From Dictyostelium discoideum (Eukaryota), in NCBI GenBank assembly GCA_000004695.1, contig CM000153.2, forward strand, positions 3,040,001 through 3,104,000: DNA of 64,000 nucleotides, in the 5' to 3' direction. Of the stretch, positions 30,105-62,512 are shown piece after piece. The notes under the pieces were generated by a model, which saw only the letters and a program-made list of their open reading frames with translations, ran no database searches and was not told where the DNA came from. The position numbers and the translations under genes were made by a program. Numbering within the stretch: the first letter of the stretch is position 1; each line of letters begins with the position of its first letter.

Positions 30105-30130
30105 TCTCTGTAGTTTTTAATATTGTTATT

Positions 30131-30162
<32 letters not shown>

Positions 30163-30435: not shown

Positions 30436-30491
<56 letters not shown>

Positions 30492-31988: not shown

Positions 31989-32095
31989 ATTATTTTTAAA
32001 ACCTTTTTTATTTCGGATTATTAATAAATATTACTATTTACTTATTAATATAAAAATAAAAATAAAAATAAAATAAAATTAAAAATATATTTGGG

Positions 32096-32126
<31 letters not shown>

Positions 32127-33028: not shown

Positions 33029-33100
33029 TCCTTGTTGGTCTAGTGGTGAGGATTTTCGCCTGTCACGCGAAAGGCCCGGGTTCAATTCCCGGACAGGGAG
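33029..33100 (+). tRNA. tRNA-Asp (anticodon GUC), 72 nt. Second copy, identical to the minus-strand gene at 17091..17162.
   Basis: TCCTTGTTGGTCTAGTGGTGAGGATTTTCGCCTGTCACGCGAAAGGCCCGGGTTCAATTCCCGGACAGGGAG. The 3' flank shares cttttg...CCGAACTTCG with the other copy. Confidence 0.92.
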
Positions 33101-33213
33101 CTTTTGCTATTTTTTCAAAAACCCGAACTTCGAAAATTTGTAGTTTTTAATTTTTAAAAAAATCTGGACTGAAAATTTTTTAAAAAGGAATACTTATTTA
33201 TAAATTTTAAAAT

Positions 33214-35848: not shown

Positions 35849-35948
35849 NNNNNNNNNNNNNNNNNNNNNNNNNNNNNNNNNNNNNNNNNNNNNNNNNNNN
35901 NNNNNNNNNNNNNNNNNNNNNNNNNNNNNNNNNNNNNNNNNNNNNNNN
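35849..35948. other. Assembly gap (100 N).
   Basis: Run of n characters. Confidence 1.

Positions 35949-37305: not shown

Positions 37306-37345
<40 letters not shown>
35949..37345 (+). mobile_element. Fragment of a second, different non-LTR retroelement. It has an ORF1-like protein (to 37009), then the N-terminus of a distinct APE endonuclease (IRIGVWNVQGSNTIQSAS...LLTETNIK..., 37021..37260), truncated and ending in an A(40) tail.
   Basis: After the gap the ORF (FITTIRPKNMYTDFDWYKSLTEIEWVIENEG...) no longer matches copies B/C of the first family. A new APE start motif follows the stop at 37009 and differs from the MVVIKINQWNVRGWG of copy A. Oligo(A) at 37305..37345. Confidence 0.55.
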
Positions 37346-37349
<4 letters not shown>

Positions 37350-37680
37350 CAGGTTAATCAGAAAAATAAAAAAGATAGAAAGAAAATAAAATGAAAATCA
37401 CAAACAACACCACAAATATTAAGCAACACAAATGCCTACAAAAAATAAGCGAAATTGTGGATAAAACTCAATTAAAAAAAAAACAATTCAAATACGTCAT
37501 AAACATCAATCACGAACCAGACGATAAAATAAAAAAAGATTTAGAAAAAAGTTTGGACAAAAAAGATGTTTTAATCAAAAAGACCCTGTAAAAAAAAAAA
37601 AAAAATAAAATGAGATCTAGCATCTCAAGGAGAAGCAAATAATAATTGCGTTATCCAATTCAAAAAAAAAAAAAAGTGGG
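37346..37680 (+). mobile_element. Additional retroelement 3'-end remnants: two further oligo(A) tracts (37598..37612, 37666..37679), each preceded by non-AT-rich tail sequence, and a 66-aa ORF at 37391..37591.
   Basis: Three oligo(A) tails within about 400 bp downstream of a tRNA gene, which fits nested or serial TRE3 insertions. The sequence is unlike the surrounding intergenic AT-rich DNA. Confidence 0.35.
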
Positions 37681-37951
37681 TATTTTATGAAAATTTTGTT
37701 GTATGGCTCTATTGATAATGACAAAGATGTTTTTTACAATTTTAAATTTGAAATTCCATAAAATATATAAACATCCATTTAAATAAATAATTAATCTTGT
37801 TTTTTATTTTTATAAAAAATTTTCAAATTTAATTGAAATTTTTTTCTTTTAAAATTACAAAAAAAAAATCCCACTTTTTTTTCACAAATAAAAAAAGTTT
37901 TTTTTTTTATTTTATTTATTATTTTTTTAATAAATTATTTTTTAAAAAATA

Positions 37952-38076
37952 ATGGTGAAAAGAATAAAAAATAAACAAATACAAAATACATATGGTCAGA
38001 ATGATCAGCATGAACTCAAGCTACAAAAATCCAAAATTCAAATACCAAAAGAAAAAGGAGAACATCAAGGCGAGCC

Positions 38077-38143
<67 letters not shown>

Positions 38144-40801
38144 AAACAACAAAAACAACAAAAACAAGAATATAATGAAAATGAAAAATTATTTTGGAAA
38201 GTAATTAAAAATAAATTTTTAAAAACATACATATTTTCATTTTTAAATGATAAATCAAAGATTCAAAATAAAATTTACAAGTATGATGAAATTTGTTCCG
38301 TTCAATTTTTAATAAAGAATAATTTAATTGAACTATTAAAATATAAAGTTAAAAGAGGTGAAACTTTGATTGATTTTCTACCATTTTTAAAAAAAAGAAA
38401 ATTTCAAAATTATAAACCACCCACTGAAGATCCAAATGATAGAAAATCAATTTTTAAAGTTATAAAAAATGATACAGAATTTTATCAAAACCTTTTCAAA
38501 AATTATAATCAAAATTTCATATCAAATGAAAAAACATTTTTTGCCAATGGTTATACTCCTTCCATTTTACCATTATCAATGGAGGACGATGGTAAATTCG
38601 ATTTAAAAATTGAAACAAAAAAACAAATAATAAAAGATGATAATGAATGTGCATTTAGAATTTTTCAAAATGTAAACTCTGTTCAAATAACTGTCGAAGA
38701 TTTTTGTGATGCAATATCAGAAGGTTCAATTAAAACAGCTAAATTAATTTTTAATCGATTAAAAAAGGAATCAAATTTTAAAAAACATGAATTAATTGGA
38801 AAAGTTTGGAAAAATTATACATTTTTAAATTCAAATTCACCAATGTTTAAAGATTTTACTTTTAAAATTTCACCATCAACTTTTGAAACCTCTGAAACAT
38901 TTTCAACTTTATCTTTATCATCACAATCACAATCACCATTACCATCATCTCAAATATCAACCACATCAAAATTTAAAATTATAAATAAATCAGTTAAATT
39001 ATTATTGATTGACTTAAAATTTATACCACCAAAAGAAATGAATAATATTAATCAAGATATTTTTAAAATTGATATTAAAGAATTAAAAGTTAAACATCTT
39101 TTAGAATCATGTAAAACAATTTCAATGATATTACAATTTACAAATTTATTTGATACTTATTTAAAAACTTTAAAAAAGAAAGAAATCAGTGATAAATTTA
39201 TGGGATTTGAAGGTGAACTTCAAACATATTTACCAAATCCATTAATTGATTTTTTAAGTTTTGAAAAATTAATTGAAATTGAACAAAATTTAAAACCTAA
39301 ATCAATTGAATCATTGGTTCATTCAATATCAACAAGTGATACTGATAGCGATTACATTTTTAAACTATTTAAAATGTTATTAACATTTACAGATTATTCA
39401 ACAGTTTTTAAAGATAATTTTATATTTTTCAAATGTAAATATTTTAATGATTATTCATTATGTAAATCAGCAAAAGATAAACAATTACCATTCCAATTAG
39501 GTTCATTTGAAAATATTTTACCAAATTCTTCTTATTTAAGTAACTTGTTTCAATTATTTTCATATTGTCAAAATGAAAAAGAAATTCAAACTAAATTCAT
39601 TAATCAAGCAATTGAAAATATAATTCAAAGTTTAAAAGATTCAAAAAGACCAATAATTAAACCATTAAATTTAATTATAACATTATTACACTTTGATTAC
39701 ATTGAATTTATTTCAATATTTTATAAAAATCTAAAAGATATTATTAAAAACGAGAAAGATTTACTACCAATTGATTTACTTGACCATATAAAATCAACAA
39801 CTACTTTTGATTTTTTTATTAATAGTAATTTATTATTTAAAAATCAAATTAATTTAAATAATTGTTTAATTTTGAAAAATAATGGTGGTGGTGGTGAACC
39901 ATTAAATTTAATGTATCATATTAAAAGTAATTATAATAATATTTATAAAGAATTAATTAGTTCAATTGATACAACTATTAATGATCCAATAAATTATTCA
40001 ATTGAATCATTATTATTTATTTATAATAATATAAAAGATTTTGAATATTGTTATGAAAGAATTAATGTATGGAAAAGAAGTAATATTGATTTATCATTAA
40101 ATCAATTCATTCAATTAGTTAATTGTACACCAATAAATAAGCAATATAACTATATCTGTGGTAATGGTTCATTTGATAAATTCAATTACGATTCATGTTT
40201 ATTAAAGTATAATTGGGTTATAAGAAATAAAAAACATGATATTCAATCAAATAGATGTGATAGTAATTATGGTTCAACAGAGATTGGAATAGATGCAAAA
40301 CTTGTTATTATACCATTATACCAATACTATAATCATAATAAATTAAAGTTAAATGATATATTCCCAAAATTGAATACATTAGATCCAATAATTTTCAATA
40401 AACCTCAAAATCATTTAATTCATAAAATTATAAGTGCAATTGGTGAAAGAGGTGATATAAAATCATTAGAGACTTTATTAAAATTAATGGATTTCTCAAA
40501 TTTTAATAGAACTTCTTTTTTTTATTTTTATAGTTTTTTTTTATTTGTCATTTTAGCTGGTGCTTTAAAAAATGGTCATTTAAAACTATTCCAATACTTA
40601 AAATCAAATTATCCTCACTTTTTTAATGAAAAATTAAATTTTGGTAATAATATAAATAATTTAGAAAGTTATGGTGTATTTCAAATAAATACTTTATTTG
40701 AAATATTAAGAGATATCTCAATAATTTATAATTTAGTTGATATTTTTAATGAAATAAAAAATAATATATTTTTTGAGCATTTTAATTATAAAAATAAATA
40801 A
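37952..40801 (+). CDS. Large orphan protein (949 aa), single exon, with an N-terminal poly-Gln tract. No recognisable domain.
   Basis: Long uninterrupted ORF with moderate-complexity composition (many F/N/K/I). (CAA)n at about 38090..38165. Confidence 0.5.
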
Positions 40802-40856
40802 AATAAATAATTAAAAATAAATAAATTTTAAATAAATAAATAAATAAATATATATC

Positions 40857-40888
<32 letters not shown>

Positions 40889-40970
40889 CAAATAAATTGA
40901 AAAAAATAATAACAAAAATAAATTAAAAATATTCTTTTTATTTTTTTATATTTTTTATTATTTTTAATGT

Positions 40971-41817
40971 TTATTTAGCTTTACCTTGATTGGCAACAGC
41001 TTGGATAGCAGCATTTAATTCTGATTCATCAGCAAGGTAGTAGTGTTTAATTGGTTTAAGGTTTTCATCCAATTCATATACTAATGGGATACCAGTTGGA
41101 ATATCCATTGATACAATCTTATCATCAGCAATGTTATCTAAATATTTAACTAAAGCTCTAATTGAATTACCATGAGCAGCAATTAAAACTTTTTGACCTG
41201 ATCTATATAATATAAATAAATGTTCATTTAAAATTAGTATATATATATTAAAATTATTATTATTATTAATTAATATTATTATTATTAAAGAATACATACT
41301 TAATTGTTGGAGCAATAGTATCATTCCAAAGTGGTAAAAATCTTTCAACAGTATCTTTAAGACATTCAGTTTTTGGGAGATCAGATTTATCTAATTTAGC
41401 ATAACGTGGATCATTACCTGGATAACGTTCATCAGATTCTTCGAGGGCTGGTGGTGGGATATCATAAGATCTTCTCCAGATTAATACTTGATCTTCACCA
41501 TATTTTGCGGCAGTTTCTGATTTATTTAAACCTTGAAGTGAACCATACATACGTTCATTTAATCTCCATTGTCTTGAAACTGGAATCCAATAAAGGTTCA
41601 ATTCTTCTAAGAGGATCCAAAGGGTACGAATTGCTCTCTTTAAAACACTTGTGTAGGCAATATCAAATGTAAAACCTGCTTTTAATAATCTTTTACCTGC
41701 TTCATGAGCTTCTTGAACACCTTTCTCTGAAAGATCAACATCTGTCCAACCTGTGAATTTATTCTCTTTATTCCATGTTGATTCACCATGTCTAATTAAA
41801 ACTAATTTATAAACCAT
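40971..41817 (-). CDS. gpmA: 2,3-bisphosphoglycerate-dependent phosphoglycerate mutase (dPGM). Two exons: 41817..41300 and 41202..40971.
   Basis: [33 protein letters not shown] (the RHGE catalytic-His motif) ...APTIK / [23 protein letters not shown]... The GTATGT donor (phase 2, AA+A=Lys) and tatag acceptor restore the canonical ...IK-SG...AAHGNS sequence. Intron 41203..41299. Confidence 0.9.
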
Positions 41818-42072
41818 TTTCTTATTTTAAAAGTAATTTAAAAAAAAAAAAAAAAATGAAAAAAAAAAAAAAAAAAAAATTTATGTGCACATCCAAAAAA
41901 AAAAAAAAATAAAATAAAAAAAATAAAAAAAATAAAAAAAAATAAAATAAAAAACAAAAATAAATTAAAAATTCGGACGCAAGAACTGTTTTGGCCGGGT
42001 GATTTGACAGTCAATTTTTTAATTTTTTTTTTTATTTTTTTTAATTTTTTTTTATTTTTTATTTAAAATTAC

Positions 42073-42931
42073 TTAAAAAGGAATTGATTTACTTTCACTA
42101 ATTAATTCACAAGTATCAGATAATATTGGATCATTTAAAGTTTTTGGAATTGATTCCACTTTAAGTGATTGAGAGAAAGTTCCAATTTCTTTTGGTTTGA
42201 AAATGATTGGGACTTTGGTTGTAGTCTTTGGATTTAATGTTATGGTATGATGATTCAATATGAATGGTGATGGTGATGGTAAACTTAATCTAACATTTAA
42301 AGTTGCATTTGAGGCATTTGATATTGATACTTTGTTTGTTGAAGATTGTCCAATTTGAACAATACCAAATGTTATTTTATTATCATAAAAGAATAAAATT
42401 CCATTTGTATGTTGTTTGGGTTGTTGTTGTTGTGGTGGTTGTTGTTGTTGTTGTTGTTGCTTTCTTTGTTGTTGTGGTGGTGGTTGTTGGTCAGGTTCAA
42501 ATTGATGAATATGGTAATGTCTAACTTCTTCACTCTTTTTTATACCATCTGTAGTTGTAGTAACAGTTGGGTTAAATCTTAATGTATTTTCAAATGTATT
42601 GAATAAATTATTTTCATTATTATTATTATTATTATTTGTATTGTTATAAACTGAAGGTTGAGGTTTTTTTAAAATTGATTTTAAGTTTGTATTATTCGAA
42701 GCTGATGTTGTAGGAGGAATGTTGGTGGTTGCTGCATTAAATGAAGTGGTGTTTGCATTTAAAACCGAATTTGTTGGAAATGGTAAATTGATTGTCGCTT
42801 TAAATGGTGTATTGTTTAAATCCATTTCTGAAAGTTCAAATTCTCTTCCATTAATTGGTGTTGCTGTTGTTGTTGTTGTTGTTGTTGATGTAGTTGTTTT
42901 TTTAGTAGATGGTGGTAAATTACTAAAAATA

Positions 42932-43017
<86 letters not shown>

Positions 43018-46000
43018 ATTATTATTTTGTTTTGTTGGTGGATTACCAATTATTGGAGTTATTTTAATACTTGATAAATTATTAAAGAATAATTCAACAT
43101 CATCATAATCATCTAAATCGAAATTATGATTTTGACTATTTGAATCATTAATTTGTTGAGAATTTTCATTGATAAAAGTTTCTTTAAATTGAATATCTTG
43201 AATTTCTTCTTCTTTAAATTTGAAATCAAATAAGAATTCATCATCAAATGAAACCTCTTTACTTGTTGAATCCATTGAATCAGTTTTAAGATTTTCCAAT
43301 CTATTATGAACTGATCTAATCTTTCTTTGACGTGAAATTTCATCACCAAAATATAATTTAACTTTACCTGGTGATATTGTTGAATTCATTAATGATCCAT
43401 TTAATTGTGATAATAAATTATTGATACTACCGCCACCACTGCTGCTATTTGGATGAATTTCTAAACGGAAATCAACTTGTTCACCAACACCAATTGAAAC
43501 ACGATCTGGTTTAATAGTTGATTTTGAATTTGGATAAAATGAAATAGCTCTAACAAAACCTGAACGTTGACCTGTATTTTTAACTGTAAATTTACAATAA
43601 ACAGATTTACCATCAGTACTTTGCTTATTAACATATAATACAATATTATTATTATTATTGTTGTTTGAACCACTTGTATTATCAATTGAATCTAAATTAC
43701 GAGCAGAAGAAGCAACTTCCATTTTAGCGGAACCACCATAACCAAGAACCGGTATTGAGAATGATAGTTGTTTATTCAATGATGAGAAAACAACTACACT
43801 ACCATGTGGTGATATTGAAAGTGGTGTATAAATTATCTCTACTTCAGTCTTTGAATGTGGACTAATTAATAATTGTTCACCATTACCAATACTAAAGAAT
43901 GAATGACTATTATTACTACTACTACTACCACTATGATCATTTTGTTTAAATGTTGCATTCAAATGTAATGCATGTGGTAATGTACTAGTTAATGTTATAA
44001 GTACACTCTTTGTATCACCTAATTTAACACCACCAAAATTAACCACTTTTCTATTACAATAAAGTGATGGTGGTAAATTATTATTATTATCATCATCATC
44101 GTCATCGTTATGAAAAATAACACTTGAATTATTGATATTATTTAAATTATCTTGATCGTCAGAGATGATTTTAGTTGATGGTAAAAGTTTATTACTATCC
44201 TGATAGTAATTATCTTTACGTATATTATTAAATCTCTTTGACTGATAAGTTGGAGAAGGTGGTGATGATGGCATATATAAAGTTGAATCTAATGGTACGG
44301 TTATACCAATAACATCGATTTTAATCTTTTCCTTTGTTATTGATGGTGTTGAAATTATAATTGCTGCACGTTGTAATTGAATATTATTATTTGGTTGATA
44401 CTTAATTTGTAATGGTATCATTGAATTTGGTTCAACTGAAAATATTGATGGACTAATTGAAAATACATCTGGTTGTGTTGAAATGCATTCAATATCAATT
44501 AATTCATTATTATTATTATTAATTTTATTATAACTATTAAAATTACAATACATTGATAAAGTTTCAATTGGATAGATTTTCTTTCTTTCTTCATATACTA
44601 ATTTAATACCATTCTCTAAAACATAATTTGAAATACTTAATGGTACTCTACTATTATTATCAATATTTTCATAATCTTCATTATCATTATCATCACTACT
44701 ACTACCAATACTACTACTATCATCATTTAGTTTTTCCTTTTTCAATATGAATTTTGGTGTAAATGATTTTGATTTTTCAATTTTTTCAAGTTTTTGTTGT
44801 TGTGATAATAATGTTGATGGTGATTGTGTTGGTGATGGATCAATTATTAATGGTTTTTGTGAGGTTGGTGTTTTAGAATTATTATTGTTATTATCAATAT
44901 TATTATTATTATGATGATTATTAGTAATAGTTGCCGATAATTTAATTAATTTCTTTTGACCAGTTAATTGATCAATAATGGTTGCATTCGCATTATAAAT
45001 TTGTTTTTCTGGTAAATTGAATTTAAGAGAGATTTGATCATTTGATAATTTTTCAAATGAAAATCCTTCACCATTTATTTCATATGTTAATTTTTGACCA
45101 TCTATAAGTTAAAAAAAAATAAATTAAAAAAAGAATTATTAGTATGTAAACATATATATAAATTTTTAATAATAATAAAAATAAAAATATACATACTTTG
45201 AGATTTTAAAGAAAGATTTGAAGTTAAAGTATCATTAGAATTACATTCACCCATATCCCAATTATTATAACTATAAAATAAATCTTCATGATTTAAAATA
45301 TCAGCAGTTGGTGTTGCATTGATTGGGATGGATAGATTGTAAACACCACTTTGTGGTATATATTGAATTCTAAATTCATCTTCAGTCTCACTATCATTTA
45401 AATTCAATGGAACTGTTCCACTACAGGTCAATACTAAATTTGCATAATGTATACCATTTGATTCTGGTTTTGGTAAATTATCAACATTTGGTATATATTC
45501 AACCTTTAAGAATATATGTGATAATGGTTGAATTATAATTATTGGTGGAAATGGTGCCAATTCACCTTGTTTGAGACCATTATTCGATGGTGTATTATTG
45601 TTATTATTGGTTTTATCAGAAACTATTATTCTAAAAGCATCTTTATCTAATCCAAAAATATTAATATTTGATAATGTTACAGGTTTTGAATGTGGATTTG
45701 TTACAATTATATCTCTACTTAAAATCCACTCTAATTCACATTTTCCTAAATCTATTCTCTTTTCAATTACTACCATTGGATATTTAATTATGCCATCGTC
45801 ATAATTTTCTTCATTAATGTCTTCAATGTGTTGTTGTTGTTGTTGCTGTTGTTGGGGTGTTCTTGGACGTTGTTGTTGTTGGTGTTGTGGTGTTTTTGGT
45901 CTATTTGGTTGTTCTTGTTCTTGTTCTTGTTGTTGCATTTTTTGTTGATATTGAGAATTATTTATTAATGAAGATATTAAGAATGAATTATTTTTAATTT

Positions 46001-48037
46001 TTGGTGATTTAGGTTGAATTTGTGATGGTTGAGGTTGTTGTTTTGATTGTTGAGGTTGTTGATGTTGGTGTTGTAGTTGTGGTTGTAGTTGTGGTTGTGA
46101 TGGTTGTTGTTGTTGTTGTTTTGGATTTAAATATCTTTCTTTTAATCTTTGATAAGTATCATAATCTAAATTACCTCTTGTAGGTGTATAACCAACATGA
46201 GAAGGATCATTTGGAACACCAATTGAAGCAAATGTTGTATCATTTTGACCAGTTCTATTACTAACATCACCACTAATATTTGTTAGAATTGGTGATACAT
46301 AATTATTCATTCTACCACTAACACCACCATTCATACTTTGATTATGGCCACTATTGTGATTTGGTGTTGTACCATTTGGAGTATTTTGATAACCACCACC
46401 ACCACCACCACCATTCATACTTTGATTTCCACTATTTCCAAATGTTTGATTTATGCTATTGTTATTATTAATAATATTATTATTATTATCAGCAGTAGGG
46501 TCATTCATACTTTGATTTCTACTAAAATTTAATTCATTATTATCATTATTGTTTTCATTTTTATTTCTTTCATAATGATCATCATCATTTATAGTTTCGC
46601 CAAACTCAATACCAGACCCAGTACCTGATAATCTACCCATATGTGGTGATTTATATTGAAAATAGGTACCAGGTGTTTTAGCTTCACCATTATCTTGAAT
46701 GAAAGCTTGATTACTATTATTTAAAGATTGATGATTCATTTGATCATCTTTATAATTATCATTACCATTATTATTATTATTATTATCATTATGATTATTG
46801 TCGTTATCATTATTATCCAGATATTGGTCATCTTCATAAACTTCGACATGTGGTTCTTGGTATTGATGTTGATAACTATAATTATTATAACTATTATTAT
46901 AATTTTGACTTTTATTATTAATACTATTTTGATAACCATCATTATTAATATTATTATTATTATTATTATGGTCATCATCATCATCATCATCGTCACCTTG
47001 GTAATTTGTTGCTGGTGAATACATTAAAGATGTATCAATGACACTTTGTCCATTAATGTCAGTGAATTGATTACTACCATTTTGTCTAGTATTTCCAATA
47101 TTATCAATATTTGGATTATTATTATGATTATTTATAAAATCTTTATTAAATCTATTATTTTGTGAACCATAGAAATCAACATCATTAATATCTATGTCTA
47201 AATTAATTCATAATAAAATAAAATTCAAACCAATATTAGTATCATGTTAATATAATAATATATAATATATATAATATTTATTACTATTATCATATGAGAA
47301 TAAAACTTACTTGGATTTGAAACATTAAATGAGAATGTTGTATCACGTAAAATATTATCGTCACCATTAAAATTATCGAATGGTAAACTATTTTGAAAAT
47401 TTTGATTTGGTTGGTTTTGTGTTTGTTGTTGTAATTGTGGTTGTTGTGAATTTTGATGTGATGGTGATTGTTGATATCTTGATAAATGTTTATTAATGAA
47501 ACTATCTTGTGATAATCTTTGATTATGTAGATTCTTTATACTACTGATGAAAGAATTTTGTTTATGTAATGCTGAATTACGAAATGAATCACCAAAATTA
47601 TTATTACCATTATTACCATTATTATTGTTGTGGTGGTTGTTGTTGATACCATTGTTATCAGGTACTCTTGAATCAAATAATACAGATTGATTTCTATGAT
47701 TTCTTGAATCATTATCAGTGATATTACCAACATAACTATAATTCTCTACTCTATTACCACCACTACTACCACCACCACCACCACCACTACTACTACCAAC
47801 TCTTGTATCATCTAAAAATCCATTACCAACATTATTTAAATTGACTTTATCACTAACATTTGAAAATCTACTTAGGAATTGGTCATTATTACTTCTATTG
47901 GATCCTAATCCAAATTCATCCAAATTACCAAATTCTGTACTAAGATGATGATTGAAATTATTTAATAAATTATCATCATCTCTAAATGATAATGAAATTG
48001 GGTTAAATCCTGAAAATGGGTTCACGTGTTGATCCAT
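42073..48037 (-). CDS. Very large protein (about 1900 aa) with low-complexity Asn/Gln/Ser regions and at least four Ig-like beta-sandwich segments of PapD/MSP/ASH type. Possibly a Cep192/SPD-2- or Hydin-like ASH-domain protein. At least 3 exons: 48037..~47316, ~47205..~45189, ~45092..42073.
   Basis: Exon junctions NVSNPSK|gtaagt ... tttag|DIDINDVDFYG... and ...SLKSQ(S)|gtatgt ... ttatag|DGQKLTYEINGEGFSFEKLSNDQISLKFNLPEKQ..., which joins to MKKEKLNDDSSS.... Repeated segments such as ...ILSRDIIVTNPHSKPVTLSNINIFGLDKDAFRIIV..., ...NRKVVNFGGVKLGDTKSVLITLTSTLPHALHLNATFK..., ...VYCKFTVKNTGQRSGFVRAISFYPNS..., ...ITFGIVQIGQSSTNKVSISNASNATLNVRLSLPSP... have the F-G-x-V-x-x-G ... N-x-(S/G) ... pattern of ASH/MSP folds. 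Confidence 0.5.
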
Positions 48038-48243
48038 TCCAAATAAATGCTTAACCTGTTGTTGTTATTATTTTTTTTTTTTTTTTTAAATTCAAAATTT
48101 CAAAAAAAAATTATTTAATAAATAAAATTAAAAGGTTTAAAATAAAAAAACTTATAAAAGTTTATGAATATGTTATGTTATTGAAGTGAATGAAAAAAAA
48201 ATAAAAAAAAAAAGATAAAAAAAATAAAAAAAAAATTCAATTT

Positions 48244-48278
<35 letters not shown>

Positions 48279-48453
48279 CGGGAAATTAATCAAAAGGGTT
48301 TACTTGTTTTTTTTTTTTTTTTTTTTCGATGTCGAACAGAATTCTAATAGATTTGTGTATTTTTGGAGCAATTGCATGTTTTATTGTGTGTGTTTCTCGA
48401 GAATTAAAGGTTTGTATTTTTCAATTTTTTAAAAATTTTTCATGAATTTAATT

Positions 48454-48456
<3 letters not shown>

Positions 48457-48494
<38 letters not shown>

Positions 48495-50636
48495 TGGATT
48501 AACTAGATTGATATATGTCCATCTGTGTTAATACGAGTTTTTATTTAATATTTATTTATAGGCTTATCATTTAAGCTGAAGGGTTATTTTAATCATATGA
48601 ATTGATCGAAAGATATAATATTTGGGAGAGATGATTCTGGAATACAATAGTAATTAGCTGTTGTTTTTCTTAGCTTGATCGTTGAGGTGAGAAGGATCTT
48701 AGGATCTTTGAAATTATTATGGTCTTTTGCTGATAAGTTTTTCAGATCTTTTGCTTTTTTGATGTATTCTAGAGTGGCCAATTTGTGCCATTTCTTTAGA
48801 AGGGAGCTGTATGATAGTGATTCATTTGTTAAAGGATCTTCACTGTATATTTGATTGCAAATCCAAATCCAAATGTTGTGGAGGATAAGGGCCATTAGGT
48901 TTCTATATGCGAATGATCTGGTTAGATCATAGTCTATTGCTTTATAGTTCCATTCAAAGTATTCTTTGTGGAATCTGTGGTTGGCGTAATCTGCATTCAC
49001 TTCTTGATCTTTTTTGGCTGTCGGTGATAATTTTGGAGTTATTCTATTAATGAAATTGTTATTTTGCCTAATTCTTGTATGGTGCCAGTTTTTACCTTTG
49101 CCTGTGGTAATATAGATGAAATTTTTGAGTTTATTTATTTTTATGAATTGTTTTGTTTTCTTGCATGAGAAGAACAGGTGACCGTATGGGTCTTTGCTCA
49201 TATCTTCTTTGCAGAGTGGGCATTGTTTGTTGTGAAGGTAGTTTATTGGAAGGCATCTGGCCTGGAATCTAAACATTGTGTCTCTTGTTTTAGGGTCTTT
49301 TATCTTCAGTATGTTGTTGAAGAGTTGATTATAGCTGTAGCCTCTTAAGTTTAGAGATGATTGGAATTCCGTTTTAGGGATGGTTGGATTTTGGTCTTGA
49401 ATTGTGGTATACCATTCTACCAGTGAAAGTGGTTGTCCATTTTCGTTTTTTATGGATGTGAGATTATTGTTGAAGATTGCTTTTGTGATTCTTATTTTGT
49501 TCCATTCGTCTAAGTTTTCTTTTAGGTATCTGGATGTGAATTTGTTTTTTTGGATCTGATATTCCCAGCTTTTGTGATGCGATGAGTTTGTTTGTTTGGT
49601 TTCTAGTGCTAGGATGAACTGGTTTATGATCCAAAGTTTCTGCGCCAGTTGTCTCAATTCTATATTCCAAATGTTCCAACCCCCTACTTTTAGTGGATAT
49701 CTTGCTCTTTTGGTTCTCATTAAATTAATAACTTGAAATCCACTAGCATTTTTGTTGTTTGGTGCCGATAAAAACCATTCTACTAATTTATTTATTTGGT
49801 TTAATTCCTCTTCCTTAAAGTTCTCTACATATGAATAGTAGGTTAATTTAGAGAGTGCGAATGCTTTGAGGATGTTGGTTTTGGTTTTGATTGTTGAGTC
49901 AGTGGTTTTCCATAGTACTAAGGATGATCTTATTGTGTTTAATATTTCTGGCATTTTTCTTGTTATCCCTTTGCCTGTGAAGAAGTATCCCAAGTATCTT
50001 TCTGGATTTGTAGATATTGGAATTCTTTGGTTGGTATTGTCTGGGTTGCCTATAAGAATTGATGAAGATTTGTCGATGTTTAGTTTTGAGGAAGTGGCTT
50101 TGCAAAATGAATTGAAGTGTTGTAGTACTAATTCAAGTTATTGAGAGTCTGGGACCATTGAAGCCGAGTCGTCTGCAAAGCTTTGGAATTTCTCTCTGTG
50201 GTTGCTGTTGTTTAGAGGAAGGCCAGTAATTCGGTCATCTTGTAAAATTTTTCTAGCTAAAGCCTCTATTACAAGGATGAACAGGGTGGGTGATAGTGGA
50301 TCTCCTTGTTTAACTCCTCTTTTGATCTCAAAGGGTATAGTAGTTCTACCATTAATTTCAATTCTTGCTTCAGATTTGGTGAGTAGATTCATTATCAGGT
50401 TGATTATATTGGTTGGAATGTATATGTGTTGTAGTGATCTGAGTATTGAACCGTGTGAGATCGAGTCAAAAGCTTTTTCGAAATCATATAGTGTAATTAT
50501 TCCGTTAATTCTTTTATCATTACAGTAGTTGATTAATTCGTTCATTGATATGATATTATCTAGAATGAATCTGCCTGGTACGAAACCTTTTTGATTGTGG
50601 TTGATCACTTTCGTTAGTATAGGGATTATTCTATTG
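48457..50636 (-). mobile_element. Retrotransposon copy B of the same family as copy A, minus orientation. The 3' end (about 110-bp tail plus oligo(A), seen as T-run 48457..48490 on the plus strand) is intact. It runs through the RT and a C-terminal Cys-His region into the 100-N gap. It shares the in-frame TAA with copy A.
   Basis: ORFs 50138..50608 (...HNQKGFVPGRFILDNIISMNELINYCNDKR...ADDSASMVPDSQ*) and 48593..49993 (...GYFFTGKGITRK...CPLCKEDMSKDPYGHLFFSC...NIISFDQFI*). The tail gattaaaataacccttcagcttaaatgataagcc... is shared with copy C. Confidence 0.75.
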
Positions 50637-50736
50637 NNNNNNNNNNNNNNNNNNNNNNNNNNNNNNNNNNNNNNNNNNNNNNNNNNNNNNNNNNNNNNNN
50701 NNNNNNNNNNNNNNNNNNNNNNNNNNNNNNNNNNNN
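50637..50736. other. Assembly gap (100 N) between inverted retroelement copies B and C.
   Basis: Run of n characters. Confidence 1.
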
Positions 50737-53107
50737 TGGCCCAGTAATTGAAGCCATCAGAATTTCAAATAACCTAATGGATATGGACCAACTAAATAAA
50801 AGACCCACCTTCTCAAGAACGATACACAACACAAACAATAACCTCACAAGAATCTTGGAAAGGAGACTAGACAGAATATACCTTAACAATAGCATAATCA
50901 ACTACAGCCAATTATACTTAAGGAACCTAATCCCCCCAAAAATTAACAACATACCTCTATCAGATCACAACTTCCTATCAACCACCTTCACTCTACCCAA
51001 CATACAGATGAACATGCGCAGATGGAGATTAAAAAAATGAACGAATTAATCAACTATTGTAATGATAAAAGAATAAACGGAATAATTACGCTATATGATT
51101 TCGAAAAAGCTTTTGACTCGATCTCACACGGTTCAATACTCAGATCACTACAACACATCAACATTCCAACCAATATAATCAACCTGATAATGAATCTACT
51201 CACCAAATCTGAAGCAAGAATTGAAATTAATGGTAGAACTACTATACCCTTTGAGATCAAAAGAGGAGTTAAACAAGGAGATCCACTATCACCCACCCTG
51301 TTCGTCCTTGTAATAGAGGCTTTAGCTAGAAAAATTTTACAAGATGACCGAATTACTGGCCTTCCTCTAAACAACAGCAACCACAGAGAGAAATTCCAAA
51401 GCTTTGCAGACGACTCGGCTTCAATGGTCCCAGACTCTCAACAACTTGAATTAGTACTACAACACTTCAATTCATTTTGCAAAGCCACTTCCTCAAAACT
51501 AAACATCGACAAATCTTCATCAATTCTTATAGGCAACCCAGACATAACCAACCAAAGAATTCCAATATCTACAAATCTAGAAAGATACTTGGGATACTTC
51601 TTCACAGGCAAAGGGATAACAAGAAAAATGCCAGAAATATTAAACACAATAAGATCATCCTTAGTACTATGGAAAACCACTGACTCAACAATCAAAACCA
51701 AAACCAACATCCTCAAAGCATTCGCACTCTCTAAGTTAACCTACTATTCATATGTAGAGAACTTTAAGGAAGAGGAATTAAACCAAATCAATAAATTAGT
51801 CGAATGGTTTTTATCGGCACCAAACAACAAAAATGCTAGTGGATTTCAAGTTATTAATTTAATGAGAACCAAAAGAGCAAGATACCCACTAAAAGTAGGG
51901 GGCTGGAACATTTGGAATATAGAATTGAGACAACTGGCGCAGAAACTTTGGATCATAAACCAGTTCATCCTAGCACTAGAAACCAAACAAACAAACTCAT
52001 CTCATCACAAAAGCTGGGAATATCAGATCCAAAAAAACAAATTCACATCCAGATACCTAAAAGAAAACTTAGACGAATGGAACAAAATAAGAATAAAAAA
52101 AGCAATCTTCAACAATAATCTCACATCCATAAAAAACGAAAATGGACAACCACATTCACTGGCAGAATGGTATACCACAATTCAAGACCAAAATCCAACC
52201 ATCCCTAAAACGGAATTCCAATCATCTCTAAACTTAAGAGGCTACAGCTATAATCAACTCTTCAACAACATACTGAAGATAAAAGACCCTAAAACAAGAG
52301 ACACAATGTTTAGATTCCATGCCAGATGCCTTCCAATAAACTACCTTCACAACAAACAATGCCCACTCTGCAAAGAAGATATGAGCAAAGACCCATACGG
52401 TCACCTGTTCTTCTCATGCAAGAAAACAAAACAATTCATAAAAATAAATAAACTCAAAAATTTCATCTATATTACCACAGGCAAAGGTAAAAACTGGCAC
52501 CATACAAGAATTAGGCAAAATAACAATTTCATTAATAGAATAACTCCAAAATTATCACCGACAGCCAAAAAAGATCAAGAAGTGAATGCAGATTACGCCA
52601 ACCACAGATTCCACAAAGAATACTTTGAATGGAACTATAAAGCAATAGACTATGATCTAACCAGATCATTCGCATATAGAAACCTAATGGCCCTTATCCT
52701 CCACAATATTTGGATTTGGATTTGCAATCAAATATACAGTGAAGATCCTTTAACAGATGAATCACTATCATACAGCTCCCTTCTAAAGAAATGGCACAAA
52801 TTGGCCACTCTAGAATACATCAAAAAAGCAAAAGATCTGAAAAACTTATCAGCAAAAGACCATAATAACTTCAAAGACCCTAAGATCCTTCTCACTTCAA
52901 CGATCAAGCTAAGAAAAACAACAGCTAATTACTATTGTATTCCAGAATCATCTCTCCCAAATATTATATCTTTTGTTCAATTCATATGATTAAAATAACC
53001 CTTCAGCTTAAATGATAAGCCTTTAAATAAATATTAAATAAAACTCGTATTAACACAGATGGACATATATCAATCTTGTTAATCCAATATTAAAAAAAAA
53101 AAAAAAA
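50737..53107 (+). mobile_element. Retrotransposon copy C, plus orientation. It has an APE fragment (to ~51020), then an internal deletion of about 930 bp removing the N-terminal part of the RT, then the RT core, the C-terminal Cys-His domain, a ~110-bp 3' tail and oligo(A) at 53088..53107. The ORF 51022..52989 reads through (CAA) where copies A and B have TAA.
   Basis: ...MNMRRWRLKK is directly fused to MNELINYCNDKR... (compare copy A, about 34257 to 35189). The long ORF ends ...NIISFVQFI*. The 3' tail is identical to the reverse complement of copy B's tail. Confidence 0.75.
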
Positions 53108-54355
53108 ATAGTAAAAAAAAATCTTACTGGTTAGCACTTAAGCCTCCGTGACTTTGGTTAGAATCTTGGTCTGCCCGCGAATTAATGTGGTCAAAAAATA
53201 AACACACTGGATATTACTCGGATAGAATTTCGGAATTTATCTATCAATAAAAACCTTTAACAATAAAATTAATTCAAAGTTGATCATCAAACTATTTATA
53301 GAATAGAATATATCCAATTGTTTAATAAAGGAGACATATATTATGAAATATCAATTGAATTATTATTATATTACAAAAGACTAGTTAATTTAATTAAAGA
53401 CAAAGAAGTTATTAAACACAAGAAATTCTTGAACTCAACTAATAATATTATTCTATTTGAAGGAGAAACATATATTAATCCACAAGAAGATTTAACTTTT
53501 TATTTAAATAATAAGTTAATTACTGCTCTCTTAATAGTTGGAATTGGAAATATTTTCGATTATTGGTAATGCAACTGATGGTTGGTATGTTATTGGATCT
53601 TCTTCATTTTTACTATACTCCCCTGAAACTTTTGGTACTGGAAGCATTGTGGTTGTTGGTACTGGAAGCATTGAGGATTATGGCATTAAATCATTATCTT
53701 CTCTATTATTACTATTATCCTCTGACATTATTATTATTATTATGATTTGGTGACTACCAAATCGTATTGTATTATTTATAGATAAAACTATTAAAATTTA
53801 TAAATCGGCGACCCTTTGACCTATATTTTTTATTGTTGTATATGTATCTTGCTCTTTTTGAATTAGAAGAATTGGCAAAAAAACAATAAAATTATTAAAT
53901 TTAATTATTAAACCCCTTTTACATTTAAACCAAATAATAAAATTTAATAAATTTATTAAAACCCTTTTTTACACTTTAAATTAAATAAATTGATATTTAT
54001 GAGATTAAATAAAATTTATGATAAATAATAAAATATTTTTGATAAACAGTATGTTACTAAATAAATAAATATACTTATGAATTTAAACTATTTAGAGAAT
54101 TTGTTGTGTTTAAAAACTAAGGGTGGTTGGGTGTAAAAATTTCCGCAATTAGGTTGAGAAAAGTAATTTTATGTTGCGCTGGGTTGTCCCTCTCTTTTTT
54201 TTTTTTTTTTCTTTAATTATTTTATTTTCTACAAGACTCCCCTTATTAAAAACATTTTATAATAAAAAAAAATATTTACTATATACCAAAAAAAAAATAT
54301 TCCAGTATTCTATTTTTATAACTATATTTTACTTGGATCGCGAAACAAAAAAAAA

Positions 54356-54410
54356 AATAAAATAAAATAAAATAAAATAAAATAAAATAAAATAAAATAA
54401 AAAATAAGAT
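54356..54410. repeat. (AAAAT)n pentanucleotide microsatellite, about 10 units.
   Basis: aaaataaaataaaat... read directly, immediately 3' of the nubp1 stop. Confidence 0.9.
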
Positions 54411-54411
54411 T

Positions 54412-55908
54412 TTAAAGTTTTTTTTTATTTTCAATTATTATTTGATCAATTTTATCAATAATTGAATGAATTGCTAAAGTACCAGGAGTATTTGGATGAT
54501 CACAAATTGAACAAACCCCATTTTCAGCTGATTTACCTAAATTTGTATCTATTGGAATTTTGCCAAGGAATGGAATATTAAATTGTTCTGCCAACTTTTT
54601 ACCACCATCAGATTTGAAAATTTCTGTTACTTCATCACAACATGGACATACAAAACCAGATAAATTTTCAATGATACCTATGATTGGTACATTTAATTGA
54701 CGACATAATGAAATCTCTTTTTTTACAGTATCACAAGAGAGATCTTGTGGAGTGGTGACCAATACTGCACCATCGGGATTACAAGATTTTAGAGAATTGA
54801 TAATGGAGAGATGTTCATCACTTGTGCCTGGTGGCGTATCGATGATGAGATAATCTTGTTTACCCCAAAATGTATCTTTAAGGAATCTACGAATCATTGT
54901 GGTCTTTCTTGGACCTTTCCAAATTACAGGTGCATCAGGGGTACCCAATAAAAAACCAACAGACATGACTTTAATATCATGATTTGCTTGTTGCACCTTT
55001 GGTGGAATCCAACCATACTCTGAATTTATAATTTGCAATTTATCAACACCCATTAGCTTTGGAATTGACGGACCGCAAATATCAACATCTAATACAGATA
55101 CTTTGGTGGTGTTATTATTTCTCTTTGAAAAACCATATGATAACAAGGATGAAACTGTTGATTTACCAACACCACCCTTTGATGACATTACCAATATCTT
55201 ATTTTTAATAACTTTCATTCTAATTTCAATACTCTTTTTATCAGGATTATCAGCTTGTGATTTACATGCATTTTGACCTGGACAACTTGAACAAATTGCT
55301 TCTGATCCTGCTAATGGTGTATCTGAAGGACATCCAACTGATGCTTTAATAATATTACCTTCAATTATTGTTGCACCACTTGATAAAATATTTGAATCAT
55401 CTTTTATTTGTTTATTTGTTGTTGTTGTTGTTGTCGTTGATTCTGATTTACAACATGATGATGATCCACTTTTTTCACTACCTCCACAACAACCTGATTT
55501 TTGTTTTTCTTCAACTTTATTATTATTATTACTACTACAACATGAAGATGATGATTTATTTTCATTTCCTCCACAACAACTTGATTTTTGTTTTTCTTCA
55601 AATTTATTATTATTACCACTACAACATGATGATGATGATTTACTTTCACCACCACTACAACAACTTGATTTTTGTTTTTCTTCAACTTTATTACTACTAC
55701 TACAACATGATGATGATGATGATGATTTATTTTCACCAGCACTGCAACAAGTGGATTTTGGCTTTAATGATGATGTTATTGTTTGAGAATCATCAGAATC
55801 TTGTTGTATTATAATTGAAGTTGTTTTTTTTGGTGGTTGAACAACAACTTTTTTAAAATTATTGCCAATATCTTCTAAATTATCACTACCATTTCCACAA
55901 CCTGACAT
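54412..55908 (-). CDS. nubp1: Nbp35/NUBP1-type cytosolic Fe-S cluster assembly P-loop ATPase (Mrp/NBP35 family) carrying a tandem Cys-Cys-containing repeat insertion of about 110 aa in the N-terminal region.
   Basis: P-loop ...MSSKGGVGKSTVSSLL..., family motifs ...DVDICGPSIPKLMG..., C-terminal CPxC (GFVCPCCDEVTEIF), ferredoxin-like N-terminal Cys cluster ...AICSSCPGQNACKS.... Upstream of it are four or more repeats of (EEKQKSSCC-G-E-KSSSSCCS-NNNK). Confidence 0.85.
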   Translation of the reverse strand: MSGCGNGSDNLEDIGNNFKKVVVQPPKKTTSIIIQQDSDDSQTITSSLKPKSTCCSAGENKSSSSSSCCSSSNKVEEKQKSSCCSGGESKSSSSCCSGNNNKFEEKQKSSCCGGNENKSSSSCCSSNNNNKVEEKQKSGCCGGSEKSGSSSCCKSESTTTTTTTNKQIKDDSNILSSGATIIEGNIIKASVGCPSDTPLAGSEAICSSCPGQNACKSQADNPDKKSIEIRMKVIKNKILVMSSKGGVGKSTVSSLLSYGFSKRNNNTTKVSVLDVDICGPSIPKLMGVDKLQIINSEYGWIPPKVQQANHDIKVMSVGFLLGTPDAPVIWKGPRKTTMIRRFLKDTFWGKQDYLIIDTPPGTSDEHLSIINSLKSCNPDGAVLVTTPQDLSCDTVKKEISLCRQLNVPIIGIIENLSGFVCPCCDEVTEIFKSDGGKKLAEQFNIPFLGKIPIDTNLGKSAENGVCSICDHPNTPGTLAIHSIIDKIDQIIIENKKKL

Positions 55909-56147
55909 TTTTATTTTTATATTTGTTTAATATTAATTTTCTTACTTTTTTTTAAATGTTTTTATTTTTTTTTTTTAAAAAAAAAAAAATCTGGTCAGTT
56001 TTTTTTTTTTTCACACTAACCAGATATTAATATTAAAAAAAAAAAAATAAAAAAAAAATAAAATAAAAATGAAAAAAAATTAAATTTCATTATTTTCATT
56101 TAAAAAAAAAACAATTGTAAAATCAGGTCGCCTCGGTTCTGAACCAT

Positions 56148-57483
<1,336 letters not shown>

Positions 57484-57864
57484 AATTAAATAAATGTAAC
57501 AATAATACACTATTTTTTTATTTTTTTTTTTATTTATTTTATTGTATTAATAATGTTTTTAAAAGTAATTCAATCTTTTATTTTATTTTATTTTTTCTTT
57601 GTTGAATTCCTCCTTGAGTTTTTTTTATTATTTTTTTATTATTTTTGTTCTTTATCGATCTATAACTAATGAATGCGTATATTAGTAAGATAATTCAACT
57701 GCAATTTCTCTTTAGAATTTCTTATTAATTATTGAATGAAAAAAAAAAAAATCAAATTTCGTAAAGACCAAACTGCATCTCTTTTGTTTTTTTATTTATT
57801 TATTTTTTTCCTTATTTCCAAAACCAAACTATCAAAATATCCTCTATTTTAATATATCGATTGA

Positions 57865-59004
<1,140 letters not shown>

Positions 59005-59237
59005 AGTTGTTAATGATATTTCTTTTTAAATTCCTTCATTAAAAAATAAAAAAAATAATAAGAAAAGATAAAAAAAAAAAAAATAATAGAAAAAAAAAAT
59101 AAAAAATTTTAAAAAAAAAAAAAAAAAAAAAAATGACGTGTAATCAAAAAAAAAATAAAAAAACTTGAAAATTTAATAATATTTATTTTGGTTAAATGTT
59201 GATCGATTGGTTATTATAATTATTAATATGATTATTA

Positions 59238-61004
<1,767 letters not shown>

Positions 61005-61143
61005 TGTTTGAAAAAAAAAAAAAAAAATGAAAAAAATAAAAAAAAAAATGAAACAAAAAAAAAAAAAAATGAAAAACAAAAAAAAAAAAAAAAAAAAAAC
61101 CTGGATAAATTTTTGGAAGTAATTATTTAAAATGTTTTAATTT

Positions 61144-62259
61144 TCAAAACCAGCCGCAGCATGTCCTTGAAACTTTCCTTATTGTTGGTTTATTTATATT
61201 GTGAACTTTAGTTTTTTGAGGTATATCTGAATATTTTTCACGATATGATTTAATTAAAAAGTCACTATTATTTAATAAATTATTATTATTATTTTTATCA
61301 TTATTATTATCATTACTATTATTAGATTCAAAATAATCTAAATTTTCAAAATTTTTACTTTGGTTAAAATTTGGTTTACCATCTGGTGAAGATCCAAAAC
61401 CAAATTCTTGATATTTAAAAACTTGTTTAGGATTTTGTGGTGTTTGTATTGGTTGTGATATTTGTAATTTTTCTGGTGTTGTTTCTATTGTTGATATTTT
61501 TTGTTGTATTTCTTTTTCTTTTTCTTGTTTTTCTTTTTCTTGTTGTTGTTGTTTTTCAATCTCTAATTGATTATTAAAATCTAATAATGCTTTAAAAAAG
61601 TCATAACCATGTTTTTCTAAAAAAGTTTCAATTTTTGGTTGATCTGTACATTTCGATTTCTTTATGAATCTATTTATTAAATTATTTTTTAAAATTTCTA
61701 AAACTTCTTTATTATTAAAGATATCTTGTGGTTGTTGTCTAGTTTGATTTTGTTTTTTTGGTATTAATAGAATGGTTTTAGAGATTGTACTACAACTATC
61801 AATTGATCTAATTTTATTAATTGATTTAATCTCTTGAATTAAACAATTGTAACGAATTGATAAACCTTGTAATGTATCATTTGGAAATACAATGTGTTCA
61901 AATAATTGATCTTGTTCAAATTCTTCATTCTCCTCATTATTATCATCAAATTCTGATGATGTACTTAATCCAATACTGTAACTTGAATTTACTGATAAAA
62001 AACTTGAATATAAATTTTCAATTGATCTGTCAACTGAATTTGTACTATTTATAGAATCACCACTACTACCACTGATACTTTCAATACCACTACCACCACC
62101 ACTATTATTTAACCCACCCCAATTATTTTTATAATTTCCACAACTGTGTGTTTTTTCACAATTTTTACAAAATTTATTATTGCAACATTGTGAATGGGAT
62201 AAATCTTCAAACCACTGATTGCATTCTTTGCAACTTGCCAAATCATCAATTAAGCTCAT
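61144..62259 (-). CDS. LysM domain-containing protein (LYSMD-like) with an N-terminal Cys-rich segment and a C-terminal CCGWF.
   Basis: LysM motif HIVFPNDTLQGLSIRYNCLIQEIKSINKIRSID. N-terminal CKECNQWFEDLSHSQCCNNKFCKNCEKTHSC (zinc-binding-like). Confidence 0.6.
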   Translation of the reverse strand: MSLIDDLASCKECNQWFEDLSHSQCCNNKFCKNCEKTHSCGNYKNNWGGLNNSGGGSGIESISGSSGDSINSTNSVDRSIENLYSSFLSVNSSYSIGLSTSSEFDDNNEENEEFEQDQLFEHIVFPNDTLQGLSIRYNCLIQEIKSINKIRSIDSCSTISKTILLIPKKQNQTRQQPQDIFNNKEVLEILKNNLINRFIKKSKCTDQPKIETFLEKHGYDFFKALLDFNNQLEIEKQQQQEKEKQEKEKEIQQKISTIETTPEKLQISQPIQTPQNPKQVFKYQEFGFGSSPDGKPNFNQSKNFENLDYFESNNSNDNNNDKNNNNNLLNNSDFLIKSYREKYSDIPQKTKVHNINKPTIRKVSRTCCGWF

Positions 62260-62438
62260 TTTATTCTATTATTATTATTATAATAAAAAAAAAAAAAAAT
62301 GATTGTTGATATTTTCAAAAAAAAAATAAAAAAAAAATTTTTTGTTTCGTAGGAAATGTCAAAAATAAAAAAAAAAATCTTTTTTATTTGCTTTTTTTTA
62401 TTTTATTATTTTTTTTATTAATTTGTTTTTTAAATATT

Positions 62439-62512
<74 letters not shown>

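Follow-up and report, generated by a model that had tools for sequence, protein, structure and literature searches.

Head-to-head placement of TRE3 copies in a Dictyostelium discoideum scaffold is almost certainly an artefact of contig orientation

Long inverted repeats of transposons can yield hairpin RNA and siRNA, as exemplified by Mu killer in maize. In a 64,000-nt window of Dictyostelium discoideum DNA (the whole stretch analyzed; GCA_000004695.1, contig CM000153.2), two copies of one retroelement, termed arms B and C, face each other 5' to 5' across a scaffold gap. The likeness to Mu killer-type repeats is one of scaffold appearance only. Unlike those repeats, arms B and C are non-contiguous in every gapless assembly, are 98.5% rather than nearly 100% identical, and carry different deletions. 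The biology of the locus is ordinary and corresponds to the textbook picture of TRE3 and TRE5-A elements at tRNA genes. TRE3 elements lie ~40–150 bp (observed range, 14–228) downstream of tRNA genes and are transcribed in the same direction as these (PMC5911963, PMC5006619); they insert by target-primed reverse transcription. Its TRE3-A subfamily has a consensus of 5,229 bp and 67 copies (PMC5006619), and a minor pool of TRE3-A small RNAs has been reported (PMC6161686). TRE5-A targets sites ~50 bp (44–54) upstream of tRNA genes and has the reverse orientation (PMC5911963, PMC3159450, PMC5006619). TRE5-A.2, derived from TRE5-A/DRE, is non-autonomous; its AB-ORF1-BC structure includes an A-module of 200 bp and a B-module that occurs twice (PMC3159450).

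We analyzed the inverted repeat in the window as given. Repeat detection placed the arms at 48539–50546 and 51036–53043 on opposite strands, and pairwise alignment extended them to their tails (48491–50546 and 51036–53091). Over 2056 nt, arms B and C showed 2025 matches, 30 mismatches and 2 gap positions (98.5% identity), an inverted similarity far above chance expectation. A sequence-only reading had described an inverted pair of the same element around a 100-N gap, with oligo(A) 3' ends pointing outward. Both observations were confirmed, the tails being a T-run at 48457–48490 (34 nt, plus strand) and an A-run at 53092–53109 (18 nt). The same element is also present at 33316–35848. That reading further held that only the gap separates the arms, which proved incorrect. 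Arm B reaches 90 nt past the boundary of the inverted repeat (50547–50636), and arm C has an extra 299 nt (50737–51035) that derive from farther upstream in ORF2, the two parts being joined across an internal deletion of 922 bp. Between the arms lies a non-palindromic spacer of 489 nt.

Inverted symmetry is the one feature that speaks for a local inverted duplication, in which one element was generated from the other by fold-back or template switching. Yet 30 sites distinguish the arms, and the 922-bp deletion occurs in C and not in B. Arm B is far nearer to copy A, a copy 15 kb distant (752/754, 99.7%), than to arm C, and B–C identity is no higher than that between unrelated family members. 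The oligo(A) tails mark the precise end of homology among the copies; beyond them, the flanks are unrelated (best local score of 10 over 100 nt). The 98.5% identity and the unrelated flanks argue against local inverted duplication. With the deletion confined to C, they also led the proposal of a single-duplication origin of the arms to fail, and we regard such an origin as vanishingly improbable.

The arms are copies of TRE3, a non-LTR retrotransposon of D. discoideum. In TRE3, ORF2 carries an N-terminal apurinic/apyrimidinic-type endonuclease (APE), a reverse transcriptase (RT) and a C-terminal zinc-finger motif. Here, ORF2 has an RT, with a putative endonuclease-like N-terminus and a Cys/His motif. 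Pfam RVT_1 matched ORF2 of copy A (E = 1.5e-27), arm C (4.6e-20) and a full-length relative (7.5e-34). Exo_endo_phos matched copy A residues 9–253 over the whole profile (E = 0.0029), with a score of 17.8 bits that lies under the 24.5-bit cutoff. The motif CPLCKEDMSKDPYGHLFFSC (C-x2-C-x10-H-x4-C) was read in the B and C ORFs, and Pfam returned no zinc-finger match. Other features in common with TRE3 are the overlap of ORF1 and ORF2 (TAATG, –1 frame), an oligo(A) end with no LTRs, and copies that are 5'-truncated or internally deleted. Position agrees as well, with copy A 70 bp past a tRNA-Asp gene and arm C ~46 bp past a tRNA-Thr gene, both in the same orientation as the tRNA gene. No substantive difference from the family was seen. 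The subfamily is probably TRE3-A, on grounds of length and abundance only: the full-length relative measures ~5.23 kb, compared to consensus lengths of 5,229 bp for TRE3-A and 5,279 bp for TRE3-B, and the family forms a 79-member protein cluster. RT motifs for subfamily assignment were sought in a published supplement, and gene identifiers of this TRE3 family in the literature; none were found. DDB_G0285835 was considered as copy C and rejected, its six residue differences marking it as another copy.

In the window, adjacency of B and C depends solely on a scaffold join. The 14.7-kb middle contig (35949–50636) contains a TRE5-A.2-like element, a 949-aa gene, a phosphoglycerate mutase gene, a 1918-aa gene and arm B. 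It is bounded by two 100-N scaffold gaps, gap 1 (35849–35948) and gap 2 (50637–50736; exactly 100 N, as read in the sequence), and both of its ends lie inside multi-copy repeats. For comparison, we used four gapless Nanopore assemblies, from a near-identical D. discoideum strain (probably AX2-214) and three wild relatives (a wild D. discoideum strain, D. cf. discoideum and D. citrinum). All four contradict the join. Nanopore chromosome CM142510.1 (GCA_054883475.1) is 99.8–99.97% identical to the window. Its gapless segment 14741–29400 corresponds to window positions 50636–35951 on the opposite strand, and the flanking sequence on each side is collinear. Compared with both neighbors, the middle contig is inverted. 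In GCA_054883475.1, arm B continues unbroken into copy A, beyond which come tRNA-Asp and the left flank, and arms B and C lie ~17 kb apart in direct orientation. The three wild-relative assemblies, which are independent, agree with it in order and orientation, namely ParA-type gene side, tRNA-Thr, the 949-aa to 1918-aa genes, tRNA-Asp and 544-aa gene side. In all four gapless assemblies, tRNA-Asp neighbors the middle contig on its 1918-aa-gene side. None of the three wild relatives has an insertion at the tRNA-Asp site. We had considered the wild-strain loci as fully empty sites and dropped this description, as small, different TRE fragments adjoin tRNA-Thr. A homologue search with an 890-aa low-complexity exon gave no useful match, and a literature search for documented AX4 mis-assemblies found none.

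These data bear directly on the proposal, made from the window alone, that the pair is a real, large and near-perfect palindrome that could generate hairpin RNA and siRNA and form a fragile site. Arm B is not beside arm C in any gapless assembly of the locus, and with the arms apart in all of them, none of these predictions is supported. Without a palindrome, neither hairpin RNA nor a fragile site is expected. The same reading had named long reads that place the two copies at different loci as the contrary outcome, and this is what the long-read assemblies of the sister strain and the relatives show.

Arm B and copy A appear to be two parts of one element. Arm B (48457–50636, minus strand; oligo(A) at 48457–48490) is the 3' 2.18 kb of a TRE3 and ends at gap 2. 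It comprises the C-terminal part of RT, the zinc-finger region and the 3' UTR, aligns to nt ~3092–5260 of the full-length copy, and matches a single continuous element in GCA_054883475.1 with 0 mismatches. Copy A (33171–35848, plus strand) is inserted 70 bp downstream of tRNA-Asp(GUC) (33029–33101, plus strand), the target of the A+B element, and runs into gap 1. It includes an inverted 94-nt 5'-UTR fragment (33207–33300), and its direct part begins at 33316 (full-length nt 1313) with the end of ORF1, followed by the putative APE and the RT regions of ORF2. The final 754 nt of copy A recur in arm B as the 754 nt next to the gap (752/754 identical), and gap 1 becomes a 754-nt overlap, or negative gap, once the middle contig is flipped. 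The A and B ends have nine differences from C in common. Among these are a premature stop codon (TAA) at 35591 and a substitution of 2 nt that yields QHIYIP, sites at which all other family proteins covering them (14 and 16) have N and Q. This stop and this substitution were absent from every other family member examined. Copy A differs from both arm B and the gapless assembly at two overlap positions (35419 and 35453), and from the gapless assembly at two further positions upstream of the overlap. We attribute the overlap mismatches to a putative source, reads of other family copies at a Sanger-era contig end. For A+B and for C, the search for a target-site duplication returned nothing clean; the matches, of 13 nt and 6 nt, were of low complexity. 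Arm B would conform to the tRNA-downstream rule solely as the 3' half of copy A.

Gap 2 hides the target of arm C. In the gapless assembly, the sequence abutting copy C at this gap is 3,018 nt long. It contains the rest of the 5' part of C and tRNA-Thr(UGU) and, across a spacer of 49 bp, the TRE5-A.2-like element's 5' end. Arm C (50737–53109, plus strand; oligo(A) at 53092–53109) is a separate TRE3 copy, with the junction of its ORF2 deletion at 51036–51038. Its 5'-ward continuation has a second deletion, in ORF1, and starts ~46 bp downstream of tRNA-Thr(UGU), in the same orientation. The tRNA gene carries a 14-nt intron (ARAGORN, introns allowed). Default ARAGORN had labeled it Asp(gtc) and put the anticodon in an unusual place; we rejected this label in favor of tRNA-Thr(UGU), as called in the intron-allowing rerun. 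Within the window, default ARAGORN and Rfam found no tRNA gene adjoining B or C, tRNA-Thr being inside the gap.

The sequence-only reading had offered a hidden tRNA gene that attracted two insertions as an alternative. The tRNA gene is indeed there, yet the pair of insertions around it is copy C and the TRE5-A.2-like element, and not B and C. One version of this idea places a divergent tRNA pair in the gap, with each TRE3 copy downstream of its own tRNA. A divergent pair of identical tRNA-Asp genes does exist elsewhere in the window (17090 and 33029). But a single tRNA gene, tRNA-Thr, occupies the gap position in 4/4 gapless assemblies; its other side is a TRE5-A-like element or host sequence, with no TRE3. 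Arm B, moreover, has the private mutations of copy A. Two TRE3 insertions around a divergent pair are thus highly improbable.

The TRE5-A.2-like element (35949–37675, plus strand) lies at the other end of the middle contig, and in the window its 5' part is hidden in the gap. In the gapless assembly, 49 bp separate its 5' end from tRNA-Thr(UGU), upstream of which it lies in the opposite orientation. A perfect 14-bp target-site duplication, GTGGGTATTTTATG, has one copy at window positions 37676–37689 and the second 35 bp upstream of tRNA-Thr. Both the position and the duplication are as in TRE5-A.2.

We conclude that B and C are, very probably, independent TRE3 insertions that are adjacent only via a wrongly oriented 14.7-kb contig (35949–50636). 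The head-to-head adjacency itself is almost certainly a scaffold artefact. In the flipped layout, tRNA-Asp (plus strand) would be followed after 70 bp by one 5'-truncated 3.95-kb TRE3, made up of copy A and arm B, whose contigs would join via the 754-nt overlap. The three host genes would come next and be followed by the TRE5-A.2-like element in minus-strand orientation. Its 5' end would face the upstream side of tRNA-Thr(UGU) (plus strand) at a distance of 49 bp. About 46 bp past tRNA-Thr, arm C would follow as a TRE3 with two deletions, likewise on the plus strand. Flipping puts every element in the published position of its family (PMC5911963, PMC3159450, PMC5006619). The case resembles a generic mis-oriented short contig in being bounded by repeats, with gaps of unknown length on either side, in that a neighbor end overlaps the wrong contig end by 754 nt, and in that its orientation is reversed in independent assemblies from long reads. 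A mis-join of a collapsed repeat had also been suggested. The mis-join part stands, in the form of a mis-oriented contig with a repeat at each end; the collapsed repeat does not.

Could the window instead record a true inversion of the 14.7-kb segment in its own strain, with B and C facing across the gap as a 2-kb imperfect palindrome? The layout as given says so, and the differences between A and B at 2/754 overlap positions could mean two physical copies. A simple inversion, however, would split one element and would not put the same 754 nt, with private mutations in common, on both sides. No inverted homology is present at the two breakpoints to mediate the event, the A+B element and C being direct repeats. 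The near-identical sister strain and three relatives show the other orientation. Inversion would also leave B without a tRNA target, and would point the TRE5-A 5' end away from tRNA-Thr despite the target-site duplication. A strain-specific inversion is, on this evidence, very unlikely, and we infer that the strain of the window shares the gapless arrangement. It is very unlikely that a lineage-specific 14.7-kb inversion in the strain of the window, presumably of the AX4 reference lineage, with breakpoints inside a TRE3 and beside tRNA-Thr, made a true TRE3 pair with possible hairpin RNA. If it did, such a head-to-head pair could feed the minor TRE3-A small-RNA pool (PMC6161686).

Mis-orientation of the contig, our preferred reading, removes a false lead, with no palindrome and no source of hairpin RNA. 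It also affects a widely used gapped assembly, in which a 14.7-kb contig with three protein-coding genes, including phosphoglycerate mutase, is probably mis-oriented. Gap 1 is really a 754-nt overlap, and gap 2 hides ~3 kb, including a tRNA-Thr gene. The present layout is misleading for synteny, for structural-variant calling and for cataloguing TRE insertions near the affected genes.

The structure of the TRE5-A.2-like element, matched by description (PMC3159450), is also close to that of TRE5-A.2. Within the window it comprises ORF1 (444 aa), ORF2 as a stub only, a B-module (37360–37580), a C-module and oligo(A) (37663–37675). The 221-nt B-module is duplicated at the 5' end with 100% identity. 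A-modules are present as well, as a 199-bp repeat in the gapless assembly. Here the element departs from the textbook one, with 7.4 tandem A-modules compared to one or two.

The head-to-head palindrome around one of the two assembly gaps in the window almost certainly does not exist in the genome. With 24% G+C, the window is AT-rich; runs of exactly 100 N occur in it twice, at 35849–35948 (gap 1) and 50637–50736 (gap 2), with a 14.7-kb middle contig between them (35949–50636). A repeat finder returned an inverted repeat spanning gap 2, with arms at 48539–50546 and 51036–53043. These arms lie in a minus-strand element, copy B (48457–50636), and a plus-strand element, copy C (50737–53109). Extended to the tails (48491–50546 versus 51036–53091), the arms align with 98.5% identity (2025 matches, 30 mismatches, 2 gap positions). 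The oligo(A) ends point outward on both copies, as the sequence-only reading had noted, forming a T-run at 48457–48490 and an A-run at 53092–53109. That reading also had only the 100-N gap between the copies, which does not hold for the arms. The spacer is non-palindromic and 489 nt long, because copy B reaches the gap via 90 nt past its arm and copy C has 299 extra nt beside it, the latter being an upstream part of ORF2 joined across a 922-bp internal deletion. Thus, the inverted arms are real sequence, but the clean symmetry claimed for them is missing. Outside the two oligo(A)/T tails, local alignment showed no relatedness between the flanks, and we regard a local inverted duplication as scarcely credible.

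Element ORFs contain a reverse transcriptase domain (RVT_1, E-values down to 1e-27; Pfam). The closest proteins are D. discoideum reverse-transcriptase ORFs (99% identity, in a cluster of 79 members). A full-length relative at another locus is ∼5.23 kb long, with an ORF1 of 416 aa and an ORF2 that overlaps it. Published descriptions of TRE3 elements, non-LTR retrotransposons terminating in oligo(A), match these features, and the element was therefore filed as TRE3. Its subfamily, judged by length and abundance, is probably TRE3-A. The elements of this locus are of kinds already described.

A third copy of the family, copy A, ends at gap 1. This insertion (33171–35848, its direct part from 33316) begins 70 bp downstream of a tRNA-Asp(GUC) gene (33029–33101, plus strand), in the same orientation, and gives an endonuclease match that spans the whole profile but is weak (Pfam). 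The last 754 nt of copy A (35095–35848) match the gap-proximal part of arm B (50636–49883, reverse strand) at 752 positions. Over the 664 nt comparable among all three copies, nine sites show a state common to A and B but different in C, and A and B have one private site each. Among the family members that could be examined, A and B alone share a premature TAA at 35591, where all 16 related proteins covering the site have Q, and a 2-nt change giving QHIYIP in place of the QHINIP found in 14 of 14. Because the two contig ends carry the same stretch of the element and the same private mutations, they look, from sequence, like overlapping ends of one single copy. Upstream of the direct part, 33207–33300 is a 94-nt reverse complement of nt 3–96 of the full-length TRE3 5′ UTR (96.8% identity), and ∼1.2 kb of the element is absent between the two; this piece looks like a 5′ inversion of the twin-priming type, or else like what is left of another insertion. 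The tRNA-Asp(GUC) gene has a 100% identical, divergent partner 16 kb away (17090–17162, minus strand); within the window, TRE adjoins only the 33029–33101 gene.

Exact-protein look-ups with three window genes each led to one gapless chromosome, CM142510.1 of GCA_054883475.1, and the three loci were merged into 47.6 kb of N-free sequence and compared with the window. This assembly, from a Nanopore project covering strain AX2-214 (PMC12745789), is 99.8–99.97% identical to the window and contains proteins identical to those of AX4; we infer that it represents AX2-214 and that the window is the AX4 reference. Window segments 20340–35848 and 50737–62465 are collinear with CM142510.1, whereas 35951–50636 lies on the opposite strand. 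There, arm B continues unbroken, with no mismatches, into copy A sequence, tRNA-Asp and the left flank. Four sites within the element (33774, 33917, 35419 and 35453) distinguish copy A from the gapless assembly, versus none over the 2.2 kb of arm B. At both A/B disagreements, the gapless assembly has the base of B, and at 35453 copy A has the family-consensus base. Plausibly, reads from other family copies entered the contig end of copy A and account for its four mismatches.

In the gapless assembly, 3,018 nt separate the flipped contig from copy C. They include a tRNA-Thr(UGU) gene (16142–16228 of L001, a locus of this assembly). Intron-aware ARAGORN detects in it a 14-nt intron that follows position 37, and its acceptor stem has a T-T mismatch. 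Default bacterial-mode ARAGORN had mislabeled it Asp(gtc), placing the anticodon at position 30. A tRNA gene hidden in the gap had been suggested from sequence, and the gapless assembly indeed has one; that the gap conceals a divergent tRNA pair is very improbable. Copy C extends 5′-ward (L001 14873–16140), its start lying ∼46 bp downstream from that gene. Relative to the full-length copy it has two deletions, nt 189–1070 (ORF1) and 2260–3181 (ORF2), and it retains a 655-aa ORF that is intact and spans the RT C-terminus together with the zinc-finger region. In the opposite orientation, 49 bp upstream of tRNA-Thr, lies the 5′ end of an element (L001 16290–17880) whose remainder is window 35949–37675. 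It comprises A-modules, a duplicated B-module, ORF1, an ORF2 stub, a C-module and oligo(A), sharing both the AB-ORF1-BC architecture and the position at a tRNA gene with TRE5-A.2 (PMC3159450). Its A-module (promoter module) array is unusually long, with 7.4 tandem 199-bp copies. A perfect 14-bp target-site duplication, GTGGGTATTTTATG, is found at window 37676–37689 and 35 bp upstream of tRNA-Thr, which links the interior of the middle contig, a unique sequence, with the side where tRNA-Thr and copy C lie.

Through orthologues of the 949-aa gene, gapless loci were reached in three more assemblies, from a wild D. discoideum strain, D. cf. discoideum and D. citrinum. All three agree in the order and orientation of their genes (ParA-type gene side, tRNA-Thr, 949-aa gene, phosphoglycerate mutase, 1918-aa gene, tRNA-Asp, 544-aa gene side), and compared with the window their middle block is inverted. 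The tRNA-Asp site is free of TRE insertions in all three, and small, differing TRE fragments occupy the tRNA-Thr site in two. Short TRE3-like 3′ fragments lie downstream of tRNA-Thr in two of the loci (L007 8580–8895 and L009 9393–9551), and A-module-like sequence lies ∼50 bp upstream of it in the third (L008). Since the wild relatives carry TRE fragments of their own, the tRNA-Thr gene was struck independently in several lineages and is a recurrent target.

These observations are explained most economically if the 14.7-kb contig, which has a multi-copy element at either end, was wrongly oriented during assembly, a form of the mis-join considered earlier; CM142510.1 and the gene order of the relatives both have it the other way round. 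Flipping it would turn gap 1 into a 754-nt overlap and gap 2 into a 3-kb gap. Copies A and B would fuse into one 5′-truncated, 3.95-kb TRE3 behind tRNA-Asp, and TRE5-A.2 and copy C would take standard positions, one on each side of tRNA-Thr. Of the D. discoideum tRNA genes, 13% have reportedly been hit by TRE5 and TRE3 alike (PMC5006619). A true inversion in the window's own strain is unlikely: it would need 754 nt duplicated together with their private mutations and breakpoints without inverted homology, and would leave both B and TRE5-A.2 at non-canonical positions. With the contig flipped, the two TRE3 copies would be direct repeats ∼17 kb apart, and there would then be no palindrome, hairpin transcript or special fragility, contrary to what had been proposed. 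Small RNAs of TRE3-A have been reported, as minor (PMC6161686), with no link to the present locus. What is notable is limited to a probable orientation error in the gapped assembly and the tRNA-Thr gene that it hides.

Elsewhere in the window, a tandem duplication (12–2484/3837–6152; period ∼3.8 kb, several blocks of 75–92% identity) is presumably a duplicated gene. A ParA/NUBP-type ATPase gene (54412–55908, minus strand) has an N-terminal extension with three copies of an 87-nt (29-aa) Cys/Ser-rich coding repeat at 55449–55765.
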